Positions 9,008-61,125 of a stretch of DNA of 64,000 nucleotides are shown in pieces. This stretch comes from Candidatus Buchananbacteria bacterium (GTDB lineage Bacteria > Patescibacteriota > Patescibacteriia > Buchananbacterales > UBA6539): positions 360,021 to 424,020 of the forward strand of contig JABWCG010000001.1 of the NCBI GenBank assembly GCA_013359225.1, written 5' to 3'. How positions within the stretch are numbered: the stretch's first letter is position 1; each line of letters begins with the position of its first letter. The position numbers and the translations under genes are program-made. The notes under the pieces are model-generated. The model searched no databases, was not told the DNA's origin, and saw only the letters and a program-made list of their open reading frames with translations.

Positions 9008-10447
9008 ATGTCAAACGCCAGTTTAACCAAGAACACTACGTACTATACCATTGCCTTAACTATCCAGAAAATTCTGGCTTTTGTTTATTTTTGGCTTATT
9101 TCAAATGCTTTATTCGCTGAACAGTTAGGCCAATATGTCTTTGCCCTGTCTTTTACCACCTTGTTTTCAATTTTCATTGACCTTGGCCTATCGCCAATCT
9201 TAACTCGAGAAGCCTCAAAGGATAAGCAGTCAGCCAATCAATATCTCCAAAATGTCTTAGGTATTAAGCTGCCGCTAACAATCATCACCCTAGCCGCAGC
9301 ATGGCTTGTCATCAATATTTCAAACAAACCAGACGACGTCCGACTTTTGGTCTACCTGGCCAGTTTCATTATGACGCTTGACTCGTTCTCTTTGAGTTTT
9401 TGGGTTATCTTTCGTGCCCGCCAGGTCTTAAAATATGAAAGCCTCACAACCGTTGCCGTACAAATAATTATCTTTACTCTTGGCGTCATTGCCCTTAAAA
9501 CCTCCGGCCAAGTCAAAGATTTAATTATTGCCTTACTGGTTGCCAGTATTTTTAACTTTTTAGTTTCTCTAGCATTACTTAAATTCAAACTTAAATTTTC
9601 AATTCGACCACGGTTTGACAAGACTATCGCTATTCACTTTCTTAAAATTGTCCCGGCTTTTGCCATTGCCGGAATTTTTGTCAAAATTTACAACACCTCA
9701 GATTCAGTTTTGCTTAGTTACCTTGACTCAGATGAAGCGGTTGGATTCTTTGCCGTCCCGGCCAAGGTGGTATATGCCTTACAACAAATTATCCCGGCTG
9801 CCTTTGCAGCCGTAATCTTTCCAGCGTTTAGTTATTATCACAAAAACTCTAAACCATTACTTGAAAAAACTTTTACTAAGGCCTTTAACTACCTAACAAT
9901 CATTAGTTTGCCGCTTACTGCCGGATTAATGGCAACCATTCCGGAAGTTACCCAAACAGTTTGGCCGGAATATACTGCCGTGGTTCCGACTTTTTATGTT
10001 ATGACGTTAGCCATTCCTTTTATATTTCTGGCGTTTCCCACTGGTTATTTATTAAACGCCTGCGATCGACAAAAAAACACCACCATCAACCGGGGCATTA
10101 TTACCTTTTTGGCCGTTACTCTTAATCTCATCTTAATTCCCAAGCTCAGTTATTTTGGCGCCGGAGTAACTTTTTTAATTACCAACTTTATTTTACTATT
10201 TCTTGACTTAATTTGGGTAAAACAAACCATCGTTTTGGAAACAAAAAAATTACTAAAGACCATTTTCAAATCATCATTAGCCGCCGCTCTGATGATTATT
10301 TTGGTTATCGCTATCAAATCATATTTTAATCTGCTGGTTATTATTCCGCTGGGTGCGCTGACATACTTTGGCGTACTACTGATGCTAAGGGGGATACAAA
10401 TCAAAGAACTAAATGAAATTTTTAACAAAGGTTTTCGCAATGGCTAA
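9008..10447 (+). CDS. polysaccharide/oligosaccharide flippase (Wzx-like, MOP superfamily)
   Basis: About 14 predicted TM helices arranged like an O-unit flippase. A -10 TATAAT at 8996-9001 lies 6 nt before ATG 9008, which suggests a leaderless transcript. The longer 8981 start in the track is less likely. Confidence 0.65.
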   Translation: MSNASLTKNTTYYTIALTIQKILAFVYFWLISNALFAEQLGQYVFALSFTTLFSIFIDLGLSPILTREASKDKQSANQYLQNVLGIKLPLTIITLAAAWLVINISNKPDDVRLLVYLASFIMTLDSFSLSFWVIFRARQVLKYESLTTVAVQIIIFTLGVIALKTSGQVKDLIIALLVASIFNFLVSLALLKFKLKFSIRPRFDKTIAIHFLKIVPAFAIAGIFVKIYNTSDSVLLSYLDSDEAVGFFAVPAKVVYALQQIIPAAFAAVIFPAFSYYHKNSKPLLEKTFTKAFNYLTIISLPLTAGLMATIPEVTQTVWPEYTAVVPTFYVMTLAIPFIFLAFPTGYLLNACDRQKNTTINRGIITFLAVTLNLILIPKLSYFGAGVTFLITNFILLFLDLIWVKQTIVLETKKLLKTIFKSSLAAALMIILVIAIKSYFNLLVIIPLGALTYFGVLLMLRGIQIKELNEIFNKGFRNG

Positions 10448-26041: not shown

Positions 26042-26308
26042 ATGAGCTTAAACAAAACCTTTAGCGCCCTTTCTGATCCAACAAGACGTAAAATTTTAGA
26101 ATTACTCAAAAAGAAAGATCTATCGGTAAATGATATTGCGCTTAATTTTTCAATATCATTACCGTCCTTATCTCATCACCTTACAATCTTAAAAAACGCT
26201 CAATTAGTCACGTCACAGCGCCGGGGACAACAAATGATTTATTCTTTAAATCTAAGCGTATTTGAAGAAATTGCCAAACAATTATACGGCTTTTTTAATA
26301 AAAAATAA
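26042..26308 (+). CDS. ArsR-family transcriptional regulator, SdpR-like
   Basis: ALSDPTRRKILELLKKKDLSVNDIALNFSISLPSLSHHLTILKNAQLV matches the ArsR-family winged HTH and the SdpR subgroup pattern. It is directly followed by an SdpI-family gene. Confidence 0.8.
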   Translation: MSLNKTFSALSDPTRRKILELLKKKDLSVNDIALNFSISLPSLSHHLTILKNAQLVTSQRRGQQMIYSLNLSVFEEIAKQLYGFFNKK

Positions 26309-26324
26309 ACTTACAATAAATAAT

Positions 26325-26987
26325 ATGAAACATCCATTAACCCCAAACATTAAAACTGAAATTATGCCAGTTATCACTCTAATTCTCCTGGCAGTTATCA
26401 GCGTCTATTTTTATAATAATTTTCCTAATCAAGTACCGACTCATTGGAATTATCGAGGAGAAGTAGATGGATATTCAGGCAAAGCCTTTGGAGCTTTTGG
26501 AATTCCGGTAATCATCGTCGTAATGTATGTAATGTTTTTACTGTTCCCATTGCTAGACCCAAAAAAAGACCGTTACCAACAATTCAAAAAGACATACCAC
26601 GTCTTCAAAACTATGATCATAGTTGTGATGGGGTTGATATATTTCTACAGCGGTTTGGCGGCTTTAGGGTATCCTGTGTCAATCAACATTGCTGTTCCAG
26701 CAACAATTGGATTATTATTCATAGTGATGGGTAACTACATGTCTAAAATAAAAAGCAACTGGTTTATTGGTATTAGGACTCCATGGACATTATCCAATGA
26801 AGAAGTTTGGAACAAAACTCATCGGGTTGGCGGAAAAATCTTTATCGCCCTAGGTGCCTTTATGATTATTGGGATATTTTTGCCAGACAAGATCTACTGG
26901 CAGGGTTTTATAGTAAGCCTTTTAGCATCGGTAGTCGGCATGATGGGGTATTCGTACTGGATATTCAAAAAGATTAATAAAAATTAA
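26325..26987 (+). CDS. SdpI/YhfL-family membrane immunity-type protein (DUF1648 + SdpI domains)
   Basis: VPTHWNYRGEVDGYSGKAFGAF matches the DUF1648 motif, and NWFIGIRTPWTLSNEEVWNKTHR matches the SdpI/YhfL signature. Six TM segments. The start is set at ATG 26325 (MKHPLTPN). Confidence 0.8.
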   Translation: MKHPLTPNIKTEIMPVITLILLAVISVYFYNNFPNQVPTHWNYRGEVDGYSGKAFGAFGIPVIIVVMYVMFLLFPLLDPKKDRYQQFKKTYHVFKTMIIVVMGLIYFYSGLAALGYPVSINIAVPATIGLLFIVMGNYMSKIKSNWFIGIRTPWTLSNEEVWNKTHRVGGKIFIALGAFMIIGIFLPDKIYWQGFIVSLLASVVGMMGYSYWIFKKINKN

Positions 26988-27082
26988 CGCTAAATAAAGT
27001 TTTACTATCTTTTAACCCCGCCTCCACACACGAGAGGAGGGGTTAAAAATTACTTTATTTATTAATCTTTTTGAAATATATA

Positions 27083-27445
27083 GCGTCGCACAATATATCT
27101 TATGCGACACTATAGGGATATATTTATCCACAAGCAAACAACTAATACAAATAGCTGCTAAAGCTATAAGATAAGCATTTAAATATAGTTTTAGACATTA
27201 ATGGACAACAAGGCCCTTAGGTAAATAAAACTTTTAAAATCAAGCAACTTACATATTACGTACTGATAAATTTTGTTTAATCAATCAAGATATGAATTTA
27301 TTAGCGCGGATGCTAATGAGAGATTAAATCATTTAAAAAGAAAGCTAGACGCCTAACCTTCTTTTTAAATGATTTAATTTGATATATTTTTCTCTAACCC
27401 CTCTTCCCTATTTGCCATTAAAAAAAGATTTATATTGTGCGACGC
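27083..27445. repeat. inverted-repeat-bounded 363-bp non-coding element (MITE-like / structured spacer)
   Basis: GCGTCGCACAATATA (27083-27097) is the exact reverse complement of TATATTGTGCGACGC (27431-27445). The flanks are TA-rich (..TATA | ATAC..). The interior is AT-rich, has no ORF, and contains a perfect 20-bp hairpin and one perfect DnaA-box 9-mer. Confidence 0.35.
27323..27378. other. perfect 20-bp stem / 16-nt loop hairpin (ATTAAATCATTTAAAAAGAA ... TTCTTTTTAAATGATTTAAT)
   Basis: Exact reverse-complement arms at 27323-27342 and 27359-27378 around the loop AGCTAGACGCCTAACC. A T-rich tract follows on the + strand. Confidence 0.6.
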
Positions 27446-27450
27446 ATACA

Positions 27451-28311
27451 CTAACTACCAAATAATTTATTGATTTCCTGATATAGCTGCTGTATTTGCC
27501 GACCGTGAAAACCAAGGCGACTCAGTAAAGTATCTTGGTTGATCAACTGTTTACATAAAACGATATTATGATGAAGTAAATCCCGAACCTGCTGATGATT
27601 CAGGCTAATCAAAACAGTAATTGGGTATAACCCCCTATTTTCAATAAGTTCCTGAAGATTATCACCCTCACTGGCGTAATCCCAGCCAATTGCTTTAATC
27701 CCAACACAGCCGCAATAAATTTTTACTTCACCAGTCACTTTGGTGTTTGTTACCAGCCAACTTTGTAGCGTGGCTTCACGCGGTTTGGCGCCCTTATTTT
27801 TTTTAATATTCCAAGCCTCTTTAATATCTAAAAACCGAGCGTACGTGTACAACGCATCCTTACTGCCGGTTTTACCACCGCCATGAGAATGAAATTTAGC
27901 CTCAATGATAGCGTGAATATTTTTTTCATACTTTTCAGCAATCACGTCCACCTCATGAGAAATACATTTACCTCTAACAATAACATTGGTTTTTGTTTCA
28001 TACCCTTGTTCCTCCAATAAAGCCGCAAAATACTTTTCAAACGGAAAACCATCGGGGCCAAGACGCATAATTGCCTTTTTAAGATTATAACGAGCCGCAT
28101 AACTCTTGTCCTCTGATTTTAAAAGATCAAAAGCCAACCGATGAATCTGGGCCGTTGTAGTGCCTGGCTTTATTTTTGGTCTTATCTGGCTGATTACTCT
28201 TTTTGCTACCCCGCTAGCCACACCAGAAGACATCATTGATTTCTTTAATTTTATAATTGAAAAAATTTCTTTTTCTCCACTTGCTTTTTTAATTAAAATT
28301 TTTTTTGCCAT
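27451..28311 (-). CDS. ATP-cone domain protein fused to Mrr-like PD-(D/E)xK restriction-endonuclease-fold nuclease domain
   Basis: The N-terminal 90 aa (KILIKKASGEKEIFSIIKLKKSM...AARYNLKKAIMRL) resemble an NrdR/RNR ATP-cone. The central region (FEKYFAALLEEQGYE...HEVDVIAEK...IIEAKF) matches the Mrr_cat D...(D/E)xK core. The last 100 aa are unassigned. The start is set at ATG 28311 (MAKKIL), 10 nt after the ftsQ stop. Confidence 0.6.
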   Translation of the reverse strand: MAKKILIKKASGEKEIFSIIKLKKSMMSSGVASGVAKRVISQIRPKIKPGTTTAQIHRLAFDLLKSEDKSYAARYNLKKAIMRLGPDGFPFEKYFAALLEEQGYETKTNVIVRGKCISHEVDVIAEKYEKNIHAIIEAKFHSHGGGKTGSKDALYTYARFLDIKEAWNIKKNKGAKPREATLQSWLVTNTKVTGEVKIYCGCVGIKAIGWDYASEGDNLQELIENRGLYPITVLISLNHQQVRDLLHHNIVLCKQLINQDTLLSRLGFHGRQIQQLYQEINKLFGS

Positions 28312-28321
28312 ATATAAAATA

Positions 28322-29188
28322 TTACTTCCAAAACACCTTCTCGCCAAACCGCAAATCAATATAATCAAGTTTTGACCGGTCATTAGCGCGCTGTTTTAAA
28401 ACAATGGCTAATGAATTAATTTGAGATGTAACAGAATTTTGAAGGCTAAATTTTACCAGCCAGCCTTCTTGGGTAACGAGCGTAATATCTTGTGCGGCCG
28501 GTCGATTAATCTCATAATGTGCAATTTCAAAATCCGCCTCGGTCCTCAGGCGACTTGTCAACTCAAGAATGAAAGCAACCGTTTCGGGCGACAATATCGA
28601 TTCACCAACGTTCACTTCTCTATTGCTCAAATCTTTTATTAAAGGGTATTGACTTGCATTAACGCCAGAACGTATCACATTGCTACCGCTTTCTGTGTTC
28701 ATTACCAATGATTGGGGGTCAATCAGCTTGGTCGCCCTTCCTTCTAAATCAAGGTAGTATTGATTATTGGCGTTAGCCCAAATCACGCCCGAATTATTTC
28801 TTTGCAAATCAACTTCAATCTGATTAAAATATTTTTTCTTAATTTTAAAATCGTTCAATAAATAAGTTTGTTGGATTCTTTCTTCAGCCTGTTTCTTGTT
28901 AAAGAAAAAAATATTTGATTGATGAAACAATAACCAACGGCGTTCATCTAACTGGTCAGCAATCAGATTTTTTATTTCTTGATCATTTATAAACTCAACC
29001 CCTTTAACCGTAACGGACGTAATCTTGAAGTATTTCAACGTATCAAAAAAATAAGCACTCAATACCACTGCCAATAAAACTCCCACGAACACCAAGCGCT
29101 TTTTCTTTTTTAATGCAGTTTGACCGTCTTTTTTAGAAAAAAAAGGGTTATTAAGTTTTTTTCTCTGATAATCTATTCTTCTAGCCAT
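28322..29188 (-). CDS. ftsQ: cell division protein FtsQ/DivIB
   Basis: A single N-terminal TM segment, a POTRA-like region and a beta domain. It sits immediately downstream of ddl, as in dcw clusters. Confidence 0.65.
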   Translation of the reverse strand: MARRIDYQRKKLNNPFFSKKDGQTALKKKKRLVFVGVLLAVVLSAYFFDTLKYFKITSVTVKGVEFINDQEIKNLIADQLDERRWLLFHQSNIFFFNKKQAEERIQQTYLLNDFKIKKKYFNQIEVDLQRNNSGVIWANANNQYYLDLEGRATKLIDPQSLVMNTESGSNVIRSGVNASQYPLIKDLSNREVNVGESILSPETVAFILELTSRLRTEADFEIAHYEINRPAAQDITLVTQEGWLVKFSLQNSVTSQINSLAIVLKQRANDRSKLDYIDLRFGEKVFWK

Positions 29189-29191
29189 AAA

Positions 29192-30343
29192 TTATTTATA
29201 CCAGTCTTCTTTTGGCTGATAAGAAGTGGCAAGACTATTCTTTTCGCGATGTCGTTCAAGCGCTAAATCAATCAGTTGATCAAGTAATTTAGAATAGCTA
29301 AGTCCGGAAGCCTCCCAAAGTTTTGGATACATTGAGATAGAGGTGAAACCTGGAATTGTATTGACTTCATTTAGGTAGACTTTATGATTTTTCTTTTTTA
29401 CCAAAAAATCAACCCTGGCTAGTCCGGAAAGGTTCAAGGCTCTAAACGCCATTTCGGCGATTAATCTGATTTCTTTAATGGTCTTTTTCGGCAACCGAGC
29501 CGGTATTACTGCTTGAGATTTGCCGTCAACATATTTAGCATCGTAATCATAAAATTCGTTGGAAGAAATAATCTCACCAGGCACCGACGCTTTTGGTTTA
29601 TCATTGCCCAAAACCGAAACTTCAATTTCTCTAATATCTTCTATCCCCTGCTCAACAATAATTTTTCGGTCATATTTTAATGCATCAATAATTCCATTGA
29701 TCAACTCTTTTCGATTATGGCATTTACCGATACCAACGCTTGAACCAAGATTGGCCGGTTTTGTAAACATCGGGTACCCCAACTTTTTTTCCAAACGACT
29801 AATTATTTTTGATCGATTATTTTTGAATTCCTTTTTAAAAAACCAATCATACCTAACGCTCGGCAATCCCGCTAGATCAGTTAATTGTTTTTGGACAACC
29901 TTATCCATTGCCAAAGCCGACCCCAAAACCTCTGAACCAACGTAGGCAATATTTGCCATTTCCAATAAGCCTTGCAACTTACCGTCTTCGCCGTAAGTAC
30001 CATGAACCAACGGAAAAACAACATCAATTTCGGTCATTGTTGGCTTGAAATTTGAAGTTGATTTCAAACTGCTTGTTTTAATATTCATCAAACTTTTTTC
30101 GGTTGGGTCAGGCGCAAAAATTGATTTAAAAGGGAGCTGCCTCATCCCCTCTTTTAAAAAATAAACTGCTTGGTTACCACTAATCCAGCGGCCTTCTTTG
30201 GTGATACCAATAGGAATAACTTGGTACTTTTTTTTGTCCAAAGCCTTCATTACGGAAACGGCTGAAACAATAGAAACTTCGTGTTCGCCGGAACGACCGC
30301 CAAAAATTACCCCAACCTTTATTTTTTTACTAATTTTAGCCAT
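29192..30343 (-). CDS. ddl: D-alanine--D-alanine ligase
   Basis: The N-terminal domain ([16 protein letters not shown]), an ATP-grasp core and the C-terminal motifs ([11 protein letters not shown]) are present. Confidence 0.9.
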
Positions 30344-58371: not shown

Positions 58372-59748
58372 CTAAAGCTTCATCAGCCGGGCCACTGTGT
58401 CCGGCTGGCAATCGTCGGCCAAAACCGGCTGAGTACCCTTTGGTTCCAGGAAGGGCTGACTGAATTTGAGTCCGTCGGCAGTGCAAATGACCACAACGGT
58501 TTCGCCTTCATGCACCAACCCTCGACTGACCGCTTTTTTCAGACCGGCCAACGCGACGCCGCTTTGCGGACAAACGAAATGGCCGTCTTTAGCGCAGGCC
58601 AGCACTGCCGGGTAAGCTTCCTGGTCAGAAGCGTCCAGAATCGCGCCGTTAGAGGCGATGATTTCCCGCATCACCTTGCGCTTAGACACCGGGTCGCCGA
58701 TTCTCATCGCCGTTGCCATTGTTTCGCCAACCTTAACCGGTTGGTAAATTTCAAGCCACTGCCGGACCAGTGCCGCCTGTTCATCGGCCGATAAATCCGG
58801 CCTGATGGCAATGTTCGGCCATGATATTGCCAGAGGGTTTGCAGCATTTGACTGGCAGCCAATAATCCGGGTCTGATGTTCAAACCCAAGGCTGGTCAGC
58901 AACCGTAAGGCCTTACCCACCGAACTGGCATTACTGCCATTACCAATCGGCACGAAAACGACATCAAGAGATTTCCAGCCGAACTGGCGAATCGCTTGAA
59001 AGACCGTTGTCTGATGTCCTTGAATCCGCGCCGGATTCAGACTGTTGCCAGGGTAAACCCCGCGCTTGACTAACTCACGAAATACTCGCATACAATCATC
59101 AAACGTTCCGGGCAGCAGGATCACTTGCGCGCCAAACAGCCTGACTTGCATCAGTTGCTCGGGCGTAATCTTGCCAGCCGGCAAGATGACTGTGCACTTA
59201 ATTCCGGCGTGGGCGCAAAATGCCGCCAGCGAAGCTGAGGTGTCACCCGTTGAAACACAGGCAATAAATTCGACACCGCCGGCTTTGGCGATGGAAACCA
59301 AGACGGTCATGCCATCGTCCTTGAAACTGCCGGTCGGATTTTTACCGCGAAGCGAAAGCCACAGCTTCAACGGCATGCCGATATATTCCTTAAGATGCCG
59401 TCCGGCCTCAACCAGCGGCACCAAGCCTTCACCAATCGAAACGATGTTGTCCGCCGATAAATCAGGCGCTACCCAGGGTTTGAAATCCCACACCCCGGAG
59501 TTAAAGTCTGACTTCCTGGCGAATAACGCCTTCCAATCGGCCGGGCGGTGATGTAGTGGTACCGGCACGATCATATCGTACAGATTGCCACAATCCGGGC
59601 ATGAAAAGGCCCGTTCAGTGAGCACGTCGGCTTTTCGGCCGCAGCCGATACATGACAGAAAAGACGTTTCTAATTCGTTCATATGTCCTCCCGGTCCGGT
59701 TAGGTTGGTTGTGAAAGGGACAAAAATAAGGTTTGAGACATTATTCAA
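58372..59748 (-). CDS. thrC: threonine synthase (with N-terminal zinc-ribbon)
   Basis: The PLP-lysine motif NPTGSFKDDG, an N-terminal C4 ribbon (CIGCGRK...CPDCGN) and a strong GGGAGGA SD. It lies in a high-GC block. Confidence 0.8.
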   Translation of the reverse strand: MNNVSNLIFVPFTTNLTGPGGHMNELETSFLSCIGCGRKADVLTERAFSCPDCGNLYDMIVPVPLHHRPADWKALFARKSDFNSGVWDFKPWVAPDLSADNIVSIGEGLVPLVEAGRHLKEYIGMPLKLWLSLRGKNPTGSFKDDGMTVLVSIAKAGGVEFIACVSTGDTSASLAAFCAHAGIKCTVILPAGKITPEQLMQVRLFGAQVILLPGTFDDCMRVFRELVKRGVYPGNSLNPARIQGHQTTVFQAIRQFGWKSLDVVFVPIGNGSNASSVGKALRLLTSLGFEHQTRIIGCQSNAANPLAISWPNIAIRPDLSADEQAALVRQWLEIYQPVKVGETMATAMRIGDPVSKRKVMREIIASNGAILDASDQEAYPAVLACAKDGHFVCPQSGVALAGLKKAVSRGLVHEGETVVVICTADGLKFSQPFLEPKGTQPVLADDCQPDTVARLMKL

Positions 59749-59828
59749 GCCTCAAAACACCTTAGACAAAAAATGCCGTTGCGTCAAGAAAAAACGAGCC
59801 TTGCAACCACAAGACTCGTCAAAAACCC

Positions 59829-60743
59829 TTAACGAACAAACAGACTGATTGGCACAACCACGATAGCGGTTGCGCCAGCCGCCTTCAATTCGGGGATCAG
59901 GCGCTCTACTGCCGACTCCTCAACAACCGCCTCCAAGGCAAAGCCTCCCGACTTCGAAAGATCCGACCTCGTCGGCTCGTCCGCCGACGGCAGAATTCGG
60001 CAGACATCACTGCAGTTTCTAGCCGCCACATTGCACTTGACAAGGACTTTGGTTCGCGCAGCAATCACGGCATTTAACAGCAGCCGAAATTCGGCGATGA
60101 TGTTTGCCTGAACCTTATTTTCCAGCGCCGCCGGATAAGTAATCAGACACGTCTGCGATTCCAGCGCCTGTTCAACAATGCGCCAGCCGCCGACTTTCAG
60201 CGAAAGCCCCGTTTCGGTGTTCTCAAAAATCGCGTCGGCCAAGCCATGAAACGCCTCAAGCGAACCATGAACATGAATGATATCGGGACTGACTCTCTTG
60301 CCATCAAGCCAGCGCCTGGCAAATGATGGATATTCGGTCGCCACCTCATGCTCTGGCATCAAATCAGTCACCGACTGGATCGGCGAATTTTCCGGCACCG
60401 CCAACACCAACTTAGTTGACCCGTACCCGCCACGCGACAACGGATACCTGTCTAAGACCACTACCTGGTCTTCAACGCCGGCCTCCGCAATCAAATCCTG
60501 AGCGGTAAACGCCAGTTCCGCCAAACCGCGGGCCACTACTTTAGGCGAATCCCACGGCCGCATTCGGCGAACAACATCAAACGGTGGCGCAAACAAACGC
60601 TTGTTGGCGATAATACCACGATACGATCGATCACCCCCCGGATAACTAACCGCACAATGGGCATCGGCAAGTAACCGGTGAATCACTTCCTTTAGTGATC
60701 CGTCCGGAACTACCAAGCGACATCCCTCACGACCCTCGTTCAA
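59829..60743 (-). CDS. hisG: ATP phosphoribosyltransferase, long form with C-terminal regulatory domain
   Basis: The periplasmic-binding-like catalytic fold and a C-terminal HisG_C-like segment (AAGATAIVVVPISLF). It overlaps hisI by 17 nt. Assignment is moderately confident. Confidence 0.65.
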   Translation of the reverse strand: MNEGREGCRLVVPDGSLKEVIHRLLADAHCAVSYPGGDRSYRGIIANKRLFAPPFDVVRRMRPWDSPKVVARGLAELAFTAQDLIAEAGVEDQVVVLDRYPLSRGGYGSTKLVLAVPENSPIQSVTDLMPEHEVATEYPSFARRWLDGKRVSPDIIHVHGSLEAFHGLADAIFENTETGLSLKVGGWRIVEQALESQTCLITYPAALENKVQANIIAEFRLLLNAVIAARTKVLVKCNVAARNCSDVCRILPSADEPTRSDLSKSGGFALEAVVEESAVERLIPELKAAGATAIVVVPISLFVR

Positions 60744-61125
60744 ATACGTATCCTCCTTCCTGCACTACACCATCAAGCTTAGTGAAAAAACAGCTTGGTT
60801 TACCAAAATGGCAGGCATACCCGTCGCCTGACACTTCAACCAAAAGTAGCACACAGTCTTTGTCGCAGTCAAGATAAGCGTCCCGGATTTTCATTGTGTT
60901 ACCGGATTCACCACCCTTATACCAAAGCAAATGGCGCGAAGTTGACCACAGCCAAACCTCGCCAGTCGCTTTAGTGTTTGACCAGGCTTCCTGATCAATA
61001 AAGCCGTGCATCAGTACCTCCTTTGTCCGGTAGTCCTGGACAATCGCCAGTACCAAACCGCCGCGCTGATTCAGCGACAAATCCAGTCGTGCTGAAAAAT
61101 CAGGAGCAAGCTCTTCTTTTTCCAT
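60727..61125 (-). CDS. hisI: phosphoribosyl-AMP cyclohydrolase (HisI domain only)
   Basis: LVLAIVQD ... the Cys-rich metal site (DCDKDCVLLLVE...GYACH). At 132 aa there is no HisE domain. Confidence 0.8.
   Translation of the reverse strand: MEKEELAPDFSARLDLSLNQRGGLVLAIVQDYRTKEVLMHGFIDQEAWSNTKATGEVWLWSTSRHLLWYKGGESGNTMKIRDAYLDCDKDCVLLLVEVSGDGYACHFGKPSCFFTKLDGVVQEGGYVFERGS

Follow-up and report, generated by a model that had tools for sequence, protein, structure and literature searches.

To our knowledge, ATP-cones have been understood solely as regulators of ribonucleotide reductases (RNRs) and of NrdR. Among nucleases of the restriction-endonuclease fold, Mrr recognizes modified DNA through its Mrr_N winged-helix domain, and the XPF family has a layout in which the nuclease is followed by a C-terminal helix-hairpin-helix (HhH). 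ATP-cones accept several adenine nucleotides and work by oligomerizing in a nucleotide-dependent manner (PMC12051234, PMC12176259), and those of NrdR bind c-di-AMP with a KD of ~3 µM (PMC12051234). AF1548 of Archaeoglobus fulgidus, whose structure is available as PDB 1Y88, has been predicted to be a restriction endonuclease with D38, E51 and K53 (PMC1821046), and we found no other statement on its function in the literature.

The gene described here lies in a 64,000-nucleotide stretch of Candidatus Buchananbacteria DNA (the window, by which we mean that whole stretch) and encodes a protein in which an ATP-cone is joined to an Mrr-type nuclease and an HhH module. Patescibacteria, Chloroflexota, Archaeoglobi and DPANN archaea together supply at least 456 distinct full-length homologues, and when clustered at 50% identity (E ≤ 1e-30) the family forms at least 645 groups from bacteria and archaea. 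The architecture, which the original prediction did not know from the catalogue of defence systems, is not new: it is already annotated publicly as 'ATP cone domain-containing protein', 'restriction endonuclease' or 'Restriction endonuclease/ATP cone domain', and part of it has been solved as 1Y88. Our literature searches found no functional study of the family and no paper that ties an ATP-cone to restriction, to an Mrr or endonuclease fold, or to defence.

Results

The gene and its local setting

The coding sequence occupies 27451..28311 on the (-) strand, with its stop codon at 27451-27453, as read from the ORF list and the translation, and its product of 286 aa has a 100% identical counterpart of the same length among deposited proteins (P0001). 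The open reading frame itself spans 27451-28383 (-). Homologues favor the ATG at 28311 as the start; the alternative ATG at 28383 would produce a 62-nt overlap with ftsQ and add residues that are present in no homologue. As originally described, the gene directly follows ddl (29192-30343 (-); Pfam Dala_Dala_lig) and an ftsQ-like gene with an FtsQ-type POTRA domain (28322-29188 (-); Pfam POTRA_1) on the same strand, with a gap of 10 nt after ftsQ in which a terminator scan gave no site, and it is convergent with an sdpRI-like module, the ArsR and SdpI/DUF1648 pair at 26042-26987 (+). Two relatives (L001 and L002) have the same gene order as the window, lysS-mgtC-cytidylyltransferase-serS-ddl-[ftsQ]-ATP-cone/Mrr gene, and the ddl-ftsQ position is specific to this one lineage. 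A terminator-like hairpin of 20 pairs (27329..27372 (-)), a pattern match only, from a consensus scan and inverted repeat I1, begins 78 nt 3' of the stop codon and likely marks the end of the lysS...ddl-ftsQ-ATP-cone/Mrr transcription unit.

The gene had also been described as abutting an element bounded by inverted repeats. The repeat is real: two perfect 15-nt arms lie at 27083-27097 and 27431-27445, and two such matches were reached in 0/100 shuffles. We rejected its reading as a mobile element or MITE, given that the two arms are the only ones in the 64-kb window, that no further copies turned up, and that the distal arm sits inside a block that L001 and L002 share at the corresponding place with 83-89% conservation. 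The repeat is more likely a cis-element or hairpin. Within the 460-nt gap here, no Rfam family passed its gathering threshold and what appeared at E ≤ 1 was sub-threshold noise, and no tRNA or tmRNA was found when these were looked for. The window and its two close relatives share a conserved palindrome ~330 nt downstream of the ATP-cone/Mrr gene.

Domain architecture and conservation

The N-terminal ATP-cone that the original prediction had recognized extends over residues 5-82 (28066..28299 (-)), as delimited by Pfam PF03477, alignment to NrdR, Foldseek and conservation. Taken alone, the window protein matches the Pfam ATP-cone at residues 7-75 with 21.4 bits, under the cut-off of 25.8, and Mrr_cat (PF04471) at residues 88-142 with 19.4 bits, under the cut-off of 21. 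Since 32 of 32 diverse aligned homologues match both models, PF03477 at E ≤ 0.01 (best E 9.2e-10) and Mrr_cat with a best E of 1e-9, we take these weak single-sequence matches to be real at the family level. A family profile matched the ATP-cones of E. coli NrdR with E 0.012. In the AlphaFold model of the full-length protein (pLDDT 92.7, pTM 0.88), the cone consists of strands 6-8 and 14-16 followed by helices within 19-82 (pLDDT 89-97), in keeping with the β-hairpin lid and four-helix bundle of ~80-90 residues that characterize the fold, and Foldseek superimposes it on E. coli NrdR 9gex (rmsd 2.4-2.6 Å over 81-84 columns) and on the class III RNR 9d3x (rmsd 2.8 Å over 85 columns), each with probability 1.0. 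The pocket residues are K9, G12, E15, F17, K21, T53, R74, Y75 and K78, and the conserved ones align with the NrdR segment VVKSNDVREPFNEEKL. Among the 456 distinct full-length homologues used for all conservation counts, K9 is kept in 443, G12 in 441, E15 in 375, F17 in 422 and K21 in 446, while T53 is found in 412 (Ser in another 36), R74 in 355 (Lys in 75) and K78 in 393 (Arg in 61).

The Mrr-type PD-(D/E)xK nuclease domain covers residues 88-215 (27667..28050 (-)), as defined by 1Y88, Mrr_cat, Foldseek and conservation. The predicted D...EAK core was confirmed in the window translation as D122 (codon 27946-27948) and E137-A-K139 (codons 27895-27903, both on the (-) strand), and E92 and E120 complete the set of catalytic residues. 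The α-β-β-β-α-β core of the Mrr_cat/PD-(D/E)xK fold is present. Residues 90-285 match 1Y88 with E 7.7e-37, and a Foldseek search with the AlphaFold model retrieves the same entry with E 3.5e-16 and a target-normalized TM-score of 0.80; the nuclease domain has further matches in those of Can2, Card1, NucS and MspJI, and there are weak similarities to Hjc, NucS and UPF0102 and a weak Card1_endonuc match. E92, D122 and K139 are present in 456/456 homologues and E120, E137 and N189 in 455/456, and elsewhere in the domain R159, D162 and W210 are invariant in all 456. C116 and C202 co-vary perfectly, both being Cys in 434 sequences of this set and C202 being lost in all 21 of those that have lost C116. 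H119 is replaced by Gln in 33 sequences, AF1548 included. Three longer homologues (P0134, P0210 and P0243) were checked for inteins or extra domains, which were ruled out; their additional length comes from loops of low complexity inserted between helix 150-172 and strand 181-188.

Sensor and nuclease meet in a junction motif, LGPDGFPFE (residues 84-92; 28036..28062 (-)). In the model it follows the last helix of the cone and leads into nuclease helix 90-101, and its final residue, E92, is the first of the catalytic acids. Its G85, G88, F91 and E92 are found in 456/456 homologues and P86 in 450/456, and it is the probable coupling element between the two domains. Because catalytic and cone residues are both conserved throughout the 456 homologues, the family appears to be a working nuclease with a working nucleotide sensor.

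The C-terminal extension of roughly 100 aa that had been left unassigned can now be divided, the first part completing the nuclease fold up to about residue 215 and the rest being an HhH domain, AF1548-like_C (PF22357, residues 229-283; 27463..27627 (-)), identified by Pfam, a domain model and Foldseek. The Pfam match of the window protein (E 4.6e-8, 33.5 bits) is above the cut-off of 23.9, and 28 of 32 diverse homologues match the model too. The domain is a 55-aa helix-hairpin-helix with a RAD51-N-like fold (pLDDT 89.7 when modelled alone). Foldseek places it closest to 1Y88 (TM 0.81) and then to the N-terminal domains of RAD51 and DMC1 (TM 0.68-0.72, rmsd 2.1-2.6 Å), with further matches to HhH modules of Pol kappa, BAF and XPF; given the small size of the domain, these matches have weak E-values. 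This module presumably binds DNA.

Inheritance and gene neighborhoods

Among Patescibacteria the gene keeps its synteny with mnmA and alaS, and its rate of divergence is similar to theirs. Pairwise identities correlate with those of MnmA with a Spearman coefficient of 0.78 (39 loci; mean identity 0.58 vs 0.63 for MnmA) and with those of AlaRS with a coefficient of 0.74 (33 loci; 0.63 vs 0.65 for AlaRS). Its inheritance in this group is vertical and core-like.

We surveyed the neighborhoods of 76 representative loci and counted recurring neighbors in the 58 that are well flanked. The upstream gene is co-directional in 54/70 loci (median gap 13 nt) and the downstream gene in 58/69 (median gap 16.5 nt). 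At the +1 position, a beta-CASP MBL nuclease is found in 7/69 loci with gaps of -34 to 78 nt, a RecB/Cas4-like PDDEXK_1 nuclease in 5/69, a P-type ATPase in 5/69 and CsoR in 3/69. No recurring neighbor is seen in 21 of the 58 well-flanked loci, no partner nuclease or phosphorylase lies near the gene in the window, and no RNR genes occur in the neighborhoods inspected.

The unrelated plasmids of Pontibacter and Criblamydia both carry a cassette made up of the ATP-cone/Mrr gene, a beta-CASP MBL gene, a member of the archaeal-type thymidine/AMP-phosphorylase family and a ribose-phosphate diphosphokinase; the Criblamydia copy has phosphoketolase, glucan phosphorylase and acetate kinase genes on its flanks. 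The beta-CASP partners from metagenomes share 48-62% identity with the plasmid beta-CASP, and one of these loci (L097) has the phosphorylase too; the four-gene cassette is complete in 2 loci only and partial in 1. These two are the only plasmids out of 72,556 that carry the ATP-cone/Mrr gene, both times in the metabolic cassette, as against 127 plasmids with the phosphorylase, and most proteobacterial MBL-TP-PRS cassettes are without the gene. On proteobacterial plasmids the trio is accompanied by Usp genes and P-type ATPases, and in Bradyrhizobium diazoefficiens it is induced under microoxia (PMC6515984). The cassette genes go unmentioned in the main text of the paper on the Burkholderia lxa locus. 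An unannotated 1.5-kb region upstream of MBL-TP-PRS on a Legionella plasmid proved to hold transporter gene fragments and not a diverged ATP-cone/Mrr copy. Neighboring CorA, MscS and permease genes in Archaeoglobi had suggested ion transporters in general as partners, an idea that we dropped: proteins with at least 3 predicted transmembrane segments make up 18% of adjacent genes vs 18% of genes at least 4 positions away (Fisher p = 1.0). Because such proteins are not enriched next to the gene, only the link to P-type ATPases and CsoR was retained.

Discussion

We tentatively favor the reading that the ATP-cone/Mrr protein is an endonuclease gated by adenine nucleotides that serves the turnover or maintenance of nucleic acids, as a chromosomal enzyme of housekeeping or stress and not as an immune effector. 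Nucleotide gating is a reasonable proposal because both the pocket and the catalytic residues have been kept in the 456 sequences. The protein would be a soluble enzyme of three domains, with an N-terminal cone that would bind ATP, dATP, ADP or AMP and would probably switch oligomeric or conformational state on doing so, as cones do in RNRs and NrdR; we infer both the binding and the direction of gating. The invariant LGPxGFPFE junction would relay this switch to the PD-(D/E)xK endonuclease, and the C-terminal HhH would keep the enzyme bound to duplex nucleic acid in a sequence-nonspecific manner, DNA being the presumed substrate. The enzyme would open nucleic-acid turnover or DNA maintenance with an endonucleolytic cut, and the exonuclease often encoded just downstream, either beta-CASP MBL or RecB/Cas4-like PDDEXK_1, would then take over. 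In some genomes the products may be fed to the AMP-phosphorylase-like enzyme and PRPP synthase, and the breakdown of nucleic acids would thereby be coupled to the energy or nucleotide status of the cell. Such a recycling role leaves the link to copper-type P-type ATPases unexplained.

Patescibacteria and DPANN archaea are generally thought to depend on nucleotide salvage. A bolder version of the proposal, which we consider rather unlikely, is that this is the first ATP-cone to control a nuclease, forming a switch for energy or nucleotide status (responsive to ATP, ADP, AMP, dATP and possibly c-di-AMP) that licenses self-digestion and recycling and that is core in Patescibacteria and portable elsewhere. 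If this is true, nucleic-acid digestion would be licensed in starvation, hypoxia and dormancy-like states by a core gene of genome-reduced Patescibacteria that is present in DPANN archaea too, and elsewhere the ATP-cone/Mrr gene would travel with the genes for beta-CASP, the AMP-phosphorylase-like enzyme and PRPP synthase as a portable module of stress and metal islands.

The main competing view is that the protein is a structure-specific nuclease of DNA repair or recombination, akin to XPF/Hef/Mus81 or Hjc, in which the cone limits activity to the right growth state and recycling plays no part. Its order of nuclease and C-terminal HhH mirrors that of the XPF family, the HhH fold matches RAD51-N and XPF, and the weak similarities to Hjc, NucS and UPF0102 point in the same direction, as do immediate neighbors that recur in a Patescibacteria clade, namely family 4 UDG, Cas4/RecB-like PDDEXK_1 and Ogt (UDG and Ogt at +1 to +3 genes), and the RadC and Ogt genes that flank a Chloroflexota copy. 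However, repair genes are mainly confined to that one clade, whereas other clades pair the gene with the beta-CASP/phosphorylase/PRPP-synthase cassette and metal ATPases, and Geoglobus has a separate Hjc three genes away. We regard a dedicated repair role as unlikely.

An improbable alternative is a role in cation, copper or stress homeostasis. The protein would then sense ATP or c-di-AMP as a partner of P-type ATPases and ion transporters, perhaps as a c-di-AMP receptor or hydrolase, with the conserved Cys pair and His as a possible metal or redox sensor. A P-type ATPase, CsoR or multicopper oxidase does occur within ±5 genes in 15/58 loci from several clades, the ATPase peaking at +1 with overlapping or short gaps (L052, L084 and L075); the archaeal genes abut CorA, MscS or a permease-Usp fusion, MgtC recurs nearby, the window included, and both the c-di-AMP affinity of NrdR cones and the perfect co-variation of C116 and C202 would fit. 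Against this, the flat distribution of multi-pass membrane proteins offers no general transporter association, and the substitution of H119 by Gln argues against a fixed Cys2His site. Moreover, the neighboring ATPases differ in specificity (Cu, Ca/Mg and Mg) and also accompany MBL-TP-PRS/Usp islands that have no ATP-cone/Mrr gene, which means that co-residence in a stress island, and not a direct function, may account for the link. A pure receptor would also have no need of an invariant nuclease site.

The original prediction envisaged a defence or abortive-infection effector, whose cone would sense ATP/dATP pools shifted by phage and unleash the nuclease on phage or host DNA. The fusion of a cone to an intact Mrr nuclease stands, and the immune role that was attached to it is not supported. 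The idea is not without precedent, since sensor-plus-nuclease designs occur in known immune effectors and the nuclease domain resembles those of the restriction enzyme MspJI and of Can2/Card1, nucleases that bind the cyclic nucleotide cA4 or are activated by it; some ATP-cone/Mrr loci are accessory islands, and two plasmid-borne homologues adjoin an integrase or an IS5 transposase. But the window protein matched 0 families of PADLOC-DB v2 at E ≤ 1, and for the 145 neighbor families within ±2 genes in 76 diverse loci the 25 PADLOC families with the most member hits were GajB and RTasHel models only, each of which, among the matches listed, hit the same two generic UvrD-type helicases. Restriction-modification, CRISPR and toxin-antitoxin genes are absent from the recurring neighbors and from the Pfam-annotated contexts inspected, with the exception of a Ferroglobus locus (L133) that has a HicA toxin ~4 kb upstream. 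Relatives were found neither in IMG/VR nor in 50,697 phage records, and in Patescibacteria the synteny with mnmA and alaS and the co-evolution with them at core-gene rates are unlike the behavior of fast-moving defence genes. The surveyed homologues thus show no association with defence islands, nor do they lie uniformly in dcw clusters. An immune function is therefore very improbable, and listing the gene as a candidate new defence system is not supported.

Most improbable is an NrdR-like transcription factor in which the nuclease fold and HhH are a DNA-binding platform and the cone sets repression of the neighbors, for although NrdR is itself an ATP-cone fused to a DNA-binding domain, the gene often sits inside operons that it could control and the downstream palindrome is conserved, catalytic residues kept in 455-456 of 456 sequences are unexpected in a non-catalytic scaffold and the neighboring operons are too heterogeneous for one regulon.

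The gated endonuclease that we favor shares parts with several described systems. AF1548, which combines Mrr_cat with AF1548-like_C, belongs to the same family and has the same D/ExK residues (Foldseek identity to the window protein 38%), with Gln in place of H119. Unlike the window protein, the 1Y88 construct, which gives the family its only structure, has neither the ATP-cone nor the LGPxGFPFE/E92 junction, and for this reason it is uninformative on gating; a 265-aa protein from sequencing-run assemblies (P0273), 99% identical to the AF1548 fragment, carries the cone too. E. coli Mrr and the type IV restriction enzymes share the Mrr_cat family and the E...D...ExK site. Where E. coli Mrr has the Mrr_N winged helix, for which the window protein gave no Pfam match at E ≤ 1, the window protein has an ATP-cone and an HhH, and in contrast to these enzymes its family has no defence context by PADLOC, for the neighbor families among the matches listed.

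XPF/Hef/Mus81 and NucS/EndoMS likewise couple a nuclease of the restriction-endonuclease fold to an HhH or other DNA-clamping module. Their nucleases are of the ERCC4 (XPF-type) or NucS subfamily and not Mrr_cat, XPF-type enzymes have (HhH)2 where the window protein has a single small HhH, and the ATP-cone is absent from the XPF and NucS families. Can2 and Card1, in which a CARF sensor is joined to a PD-(D/E)xK nuclease, follow the same design logic with structurally similar nuclease domains, but CARF is unrelated to the ATP-cone, the presumed ligands differ and no CRISPR or cyclase genes are nearby here. The likeness is one of analogy, not of membership.

The ATP-cones of NrdR and RNRs are the homologous sensor, sharing both the fold and the K...G..E.F...K signature, and by analogy the cone of this family probably works as theirs do, through nucleotide-dependent oligomerization. 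What differs is the machinery to which the sensor is attached. The window protein lacks an RNR catalytic domain, and it also lacks a Zn-ribbon, for which a cone that starts near residue 5 leaves no room; its predicted output is a catalytic nuclease in place of the DNA binding of NrdR or the inhibition of RNR. If the coupling is real, it would be a new output for a classic allosteric domain and would point to regulated nucleic-acid breakdown in salvage-dependent organisms such as the Patescibacteria.

Domain architecture and gene model

The target gene (window 27451-28311, minus strand) encodes an ATP-cone, an Mrr-type nuclease core and a small helix-hairpin-helix (HhH) type domain. With the target sequence alone, only PF22357 (AF1548-like_C, residues 229-283) exceeds its Pfam cut-off; the ATP-cone match (residues 7-75, 21.4 bits) and the Mrr_cat match (residues 88-142, 19.4 bits) narrowly miss theirs. 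These two matches are real: both domains were matched in 32 of 32 diverse homologues (best E 9e-10 and 1e-9; PF22357 in 28), the structure of Archaeoglobus fulgidus AF1548 (PDB 1Y88) matches residues 90-285 with E 7.7e-37, and the family profile retrieves the ATP-cones of E. coli NrdR with the K-x2-G-x2-E-x-F-x3-K signatures lined up. A confident AlphaFold model built from the alignment (pLDDT 92.7, pTM 0.88) agrees: in Foldseek its N-terminal part superposes on the ATP-cones of NrdR and RNR (81-85 columns, rmsd 2.4-2.8 Å, probability 1.0) and its middle part on 1Y88 and the nuclease domains of Can2, Card1, NucS and MspJI. The cone and nuclease core of the original prediction are thus borne out. 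The roughly 100-aa C-terminal extension it left unassigned is present and can now be assigned to the end of the nuclease fold and the HhH-type domain. Modelled alone, the last 65 residues (pLDDT 89.7) are most like 1Y88, then the N-terminal HhH domain of RAD51/DMC1 (TM 0.68-0.72), with further similarity to HhH modules in Pol kappa, BAF and XPF; this domain presumably binds DNA.

The open reading frame extends over 27451-28383 (minus strand), in which the ATG at 28311 gives a 286-aa product. The N-termini of all homologues align with that of this product, the deposited protein P0001 (601-kb contig; label 'ATPase [Candidatus Buchananbacteria bacterium]') is identical to it, and the longer reading would run into the upstream ftsQ-like gene. 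The latter, an FtsQ-type POTRA gene (28322-29188), has its stop codon 10 nt from the target start with no terminator-like site between them, and is preceded by ddl (29192-30343) and, before that, by serS, a cytidylyltransferase-like gene, mgtC and lysS, all co-directional with the target. Beyond the target, 78 nt downstream of its stop, is a hairpin of 20 pairs. Convergent with the target on the plus strand are an ArsR-family HTH gene and an SdpI/DUF1648 membrane gene (26042-26987), which overlap by 47 nt as called. Gene order and strands accord with the predicted setting, at the ftsQ end of a ddl-ftsQ operon facing an sdpRI-like pair. Because this pair does not cluster with the downstream genes of L001 and L002, the close relatives of the window locus, its place between target and gltX/M23-peptidase block suggests a lineage-specific insertion.

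The non-coding gap downstream of the target is 463 nt long, compared with 10-90 nt between neighbouring genes, and contains a 15-bp palindrome or hairpin, TATAGTGTCGCATAA...TTGTGCGACGCTATA; inverted-repeat arms lie at 27083-27097 and 27431-27445. The conserved region (27055-27140, core hairpin about 27078-27113) has counterparts in L001 (about 9165-9250) and L002 (about 9132-9220) and is 83-89% conserved, whereas the L001 and L002 target proteins share just 56-66% identity with that of the window. A half-site copy, GCGTCGCACAATATA, stands 5 nt past the target stop codon, and L002 has a similar sequence after its own target stop. The hairpin has no further copies within the 64-kb window, which rules out a repeated element, and Rfam has no match for it; candidate roles are an operator and an unannotated small RNA. 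Over the whole window (1-64000), Rfam at gathering thresholds gave no tRNA, tmRNA, rRNA or any other match. Elsewhere, between pgk/eno and gap genes, lies a block of 50-53% G+C (58372-61125; genome ~40%) that may stem from horizontal transfer; the genes recognised in it by eye are those for a threonine-synthase-like PLP enzyme, a HisG-like ATP phosphoribosyltransferase and a HisI-like cyclohydrolase.

Conserved catalytic and sensor residues

In an alignment of 456 distinct family sequences, the catalytic residues E92, D122 and K139 are present in every sequence and E120 and E137 in 455. G85, G88, F91, G114, R159, D162 and W210 are also invariant (N189, 455), and the nine-residue junction LGPxGFPFE, which joins the last cone helix to the first catalytic helix, is essentially fixed. 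The cone pocket is nearly as well kept, with K9 in 443, G12 in 441, K21 in 446, F17 in 422, T53 in 412 (Ser in 36 more) and Y75 in 444. This pattern fits an active nuclease under allosteric control and argues against a degenerate, binding-only fold, making the predicted nucleotide-sensing nuclease a reasonable idea as judged from sequence. Two cysteines distant in sequence, C116 (codon 27964-27966, minus strand) and C202 (27706-27708, minus strand), co-vary perfectly: both are present in 434 of 456 sequences, and all 21 that lose C116 also lose C202. Such co-variation implies that the two interact, probably as a disulfide or shared (metal) ligand in a cytoplasmic nuclease.

A catalogued family

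A word-indexed search found 1321 relatives, and an exhaustive profile search gave 645 clusters (50% identity) at E <= 1e-30 and 1175 at E <= 1e-10; the best 150 profile matches, all 268-403 aa and nearly all 270-295 aa, cover the full profile. Bacterial members come from many Patescibacteria lineages and Chloroflexota, and archaeal ones from Archaeoglobus, Geoglobus, Ferroglobus, Nanoarchaeota, Aenigmarchaeota, Korarchaeota, Bathyarchaeia and Altiarchaeales. The architecture had been thought new, but existing public names already state it ('ATP cone domain-containing protein', 'Restriction endonuclease/ATP cone domain'), and the target is a typical member of this known family, which is annotated yet uncharacterised. 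The crystallised 'hypothetical protein AF1548' starts internally, at the equivalent of target residue 93; P0273, a 265-aa protein from sequencing-run assemblies (L135 7001-7798) that is 99% identical to AF1548, has the upstream ATP-cone and LGPxGFPFE, so deposited 1Y88 is without the sensor and the first catalytic glutamate. The sole literature statement we found on AF1548 predicts a restriction endonuclease (PMC1821046), and we found no relevant work that joins the ATP-cone to restriction, Mrr, endonuclease, nuclease or defence. The architecture is catalogued and functionally unstudied.

Genomic neighbourhoods

Genes were called and clustered in 41 genomic and 80 metagenomic loci and contigs for individual homologues, reduced to 76 loci with target proteins <70% identical. 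The upstream gene is co-directional with the target in 54 of 70 loci (median gap 13 nt) and the downstream gene in 58 of 69 (16.5 nt). A large Patescibacteria clade has the order leuS-...-mltG-mnmA-target-...-alaS-...-infA-rpsM-rpsK-rpsD-rpoA, with MnmA at -1 in 16 representatives, a Cas4/RecB-like PDDEXK_1 nuclease at +1 in five, and a family 4 UDG (Pfam) and an Ogt-like methyltransferase (by eye) within three genes. The target there diverges in step with MnmA (Spearman 0.78) and AlaRS (0.74), and mean identities are similar, which indicates vertical, core-like inheritance. In the window lineage (window, L001 and L002) the order is lysS-mgtC-...-serS-ddl-ftsQ-target, so the dcw-like position is lineage-specific.

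Seven of 69 loci have a beta-CASP MBL nuclease (Beta-Casp and RMMBL domains) at +1, frequently overlapping the target. In 15 of 58 well-flanked loci, falling in several clades, a P-type ATPase (many of the CPH/HMBD copper type, peaking at +1), CsoR or multicopper oxidase lies within five genes; Usp and MgtC also recur. In Archaeoglobi the target adjoins CorA, MscS or a permease-Usp fusion, an adjacency that we do not generalise since membrane proteins as a class are not enriched beside it. No recurrent neighbour was found in 21 of the 58 well-flanked loci, and the window gene has none of the other loci's partner genes nearby. Six metagenomic loci (L044, L052, L054, L075, L081, L084) carry the target homologue within 15-20-gene co-directional metal-homeostasis arrays with CsoR, CPH-type P-type ATPase, multicopper oxidases, DsbA-like thioredoxin, ICMT/PEMT-like methyltransferase, DUF2933 and YNCE beta-propeller (Pfam), and CcdA-like and SHOCT-like proteins (by eye only); in L053, a Patescibacteria-type locus, such a metal block follows the mnmA-target pair at a distance of a few genes.

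The evidence speaks against the proposed role as a defence system or abortive-infection effector. The target matches no PADLOC model, no relative was found in an IMG/VR motif scan or by tblastn against 50,697 phage records, and only two of 72,556 plasmids carry the gene. A survey of homologue neighbourhoods revealed no defence islands: for the 145 families encoded up to two genes away, the listed PADLOC matches are helicase models on two UvrD-type proteins, and the Pfam picture is one of housekeeping, transport and metabolism.

The two plasmid copies come from Pontibacter actiniarum (Bacteroidota) and from Criblamydia sequanensis (Chlamydiota) and share 49% identity; each stands at the head of a cassette with the same order: target, MBL-fold beta-CASP nuclease, ~500-aa 'thymidine phosphorylase family' protein and ribose-phosphate diphosphokinase of the PRK07199 subfamily. 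The phosphorylase exceeds the cut-off of the archaeal-type TIGR02645 model and scores 480-506 bits against the AMP-phosphorylase equivalog, close but under 535. In Criblamydia, phosphoketolase and glucan phosphorylase flank the cassette at one end and acetate kinase flanks it at the opposite end, with a cation P-type ATPase near. Beta-CASP partners from ten metagenomic loci share 48-62% identity with the Pontibacter enzyme, and one of these loci (L097) also has the phosphorylase. The MBL-TP-PRS trio without the target is common on proteobacterial plasmids beside Usp genes and P-type ATPases, and in Bradyrhizobium diazoefficiens it is induced under microoxia at transcript and protein level (PMC6515984); the target's ATPase, Usp and beta-CASP associations are therefore plausibly parts of one kind of stress island. 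The beta-CASP/phosphorylase/PRK07199-type kinase cassette is conserved in L136, L137 and Legionella pneumophila (L138) and Sphingobium (L139) plasmids, amid Usp genes, alcohol dehydrogenases, catalase and Cu/Mg/Ca P-type ATPases; its function appears uncharacterised in the papers searched. The archaeal-type thymidine/AMP-phosphorylase family protein is on 127 plasmids.

Discussion

The best-supported model is that the target is an adenine-nucleotide-gated endonuclease anchored by its HhH domain. The precedent of NrdR and RNR (PMC12051234) suggests that gating could proceed through nucleotide-dependent oligomerisation, with the invariant LGPxGFPFE junction as the likely transmission element from cone to nuclease. 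We favour a scheme in which the target would start nucleic-acid breakdown or processing and a partner exonuclease would take over; in some genomes the products may feed nucleotide phosphorolysis and PRPP formation, and nucleic-acid turnover would thereby be tied to energy or nucleotide status.

The main rival is a role purely in DNA repair, suggested by the neighbouring UDG, Ogt and PDDEXK_1 genes and by an XPF-like arrangement of nuclease and HhH domain. The family may instead have a role linked to metal or to c-di-AMP; NrdR cones bind c-di-AMP (PMC12051234). Defence and an NrdR-like repressor role are the least supported. The family would be a good candidate for learning what ATP-cones do beyond ribonucleotide reduction.
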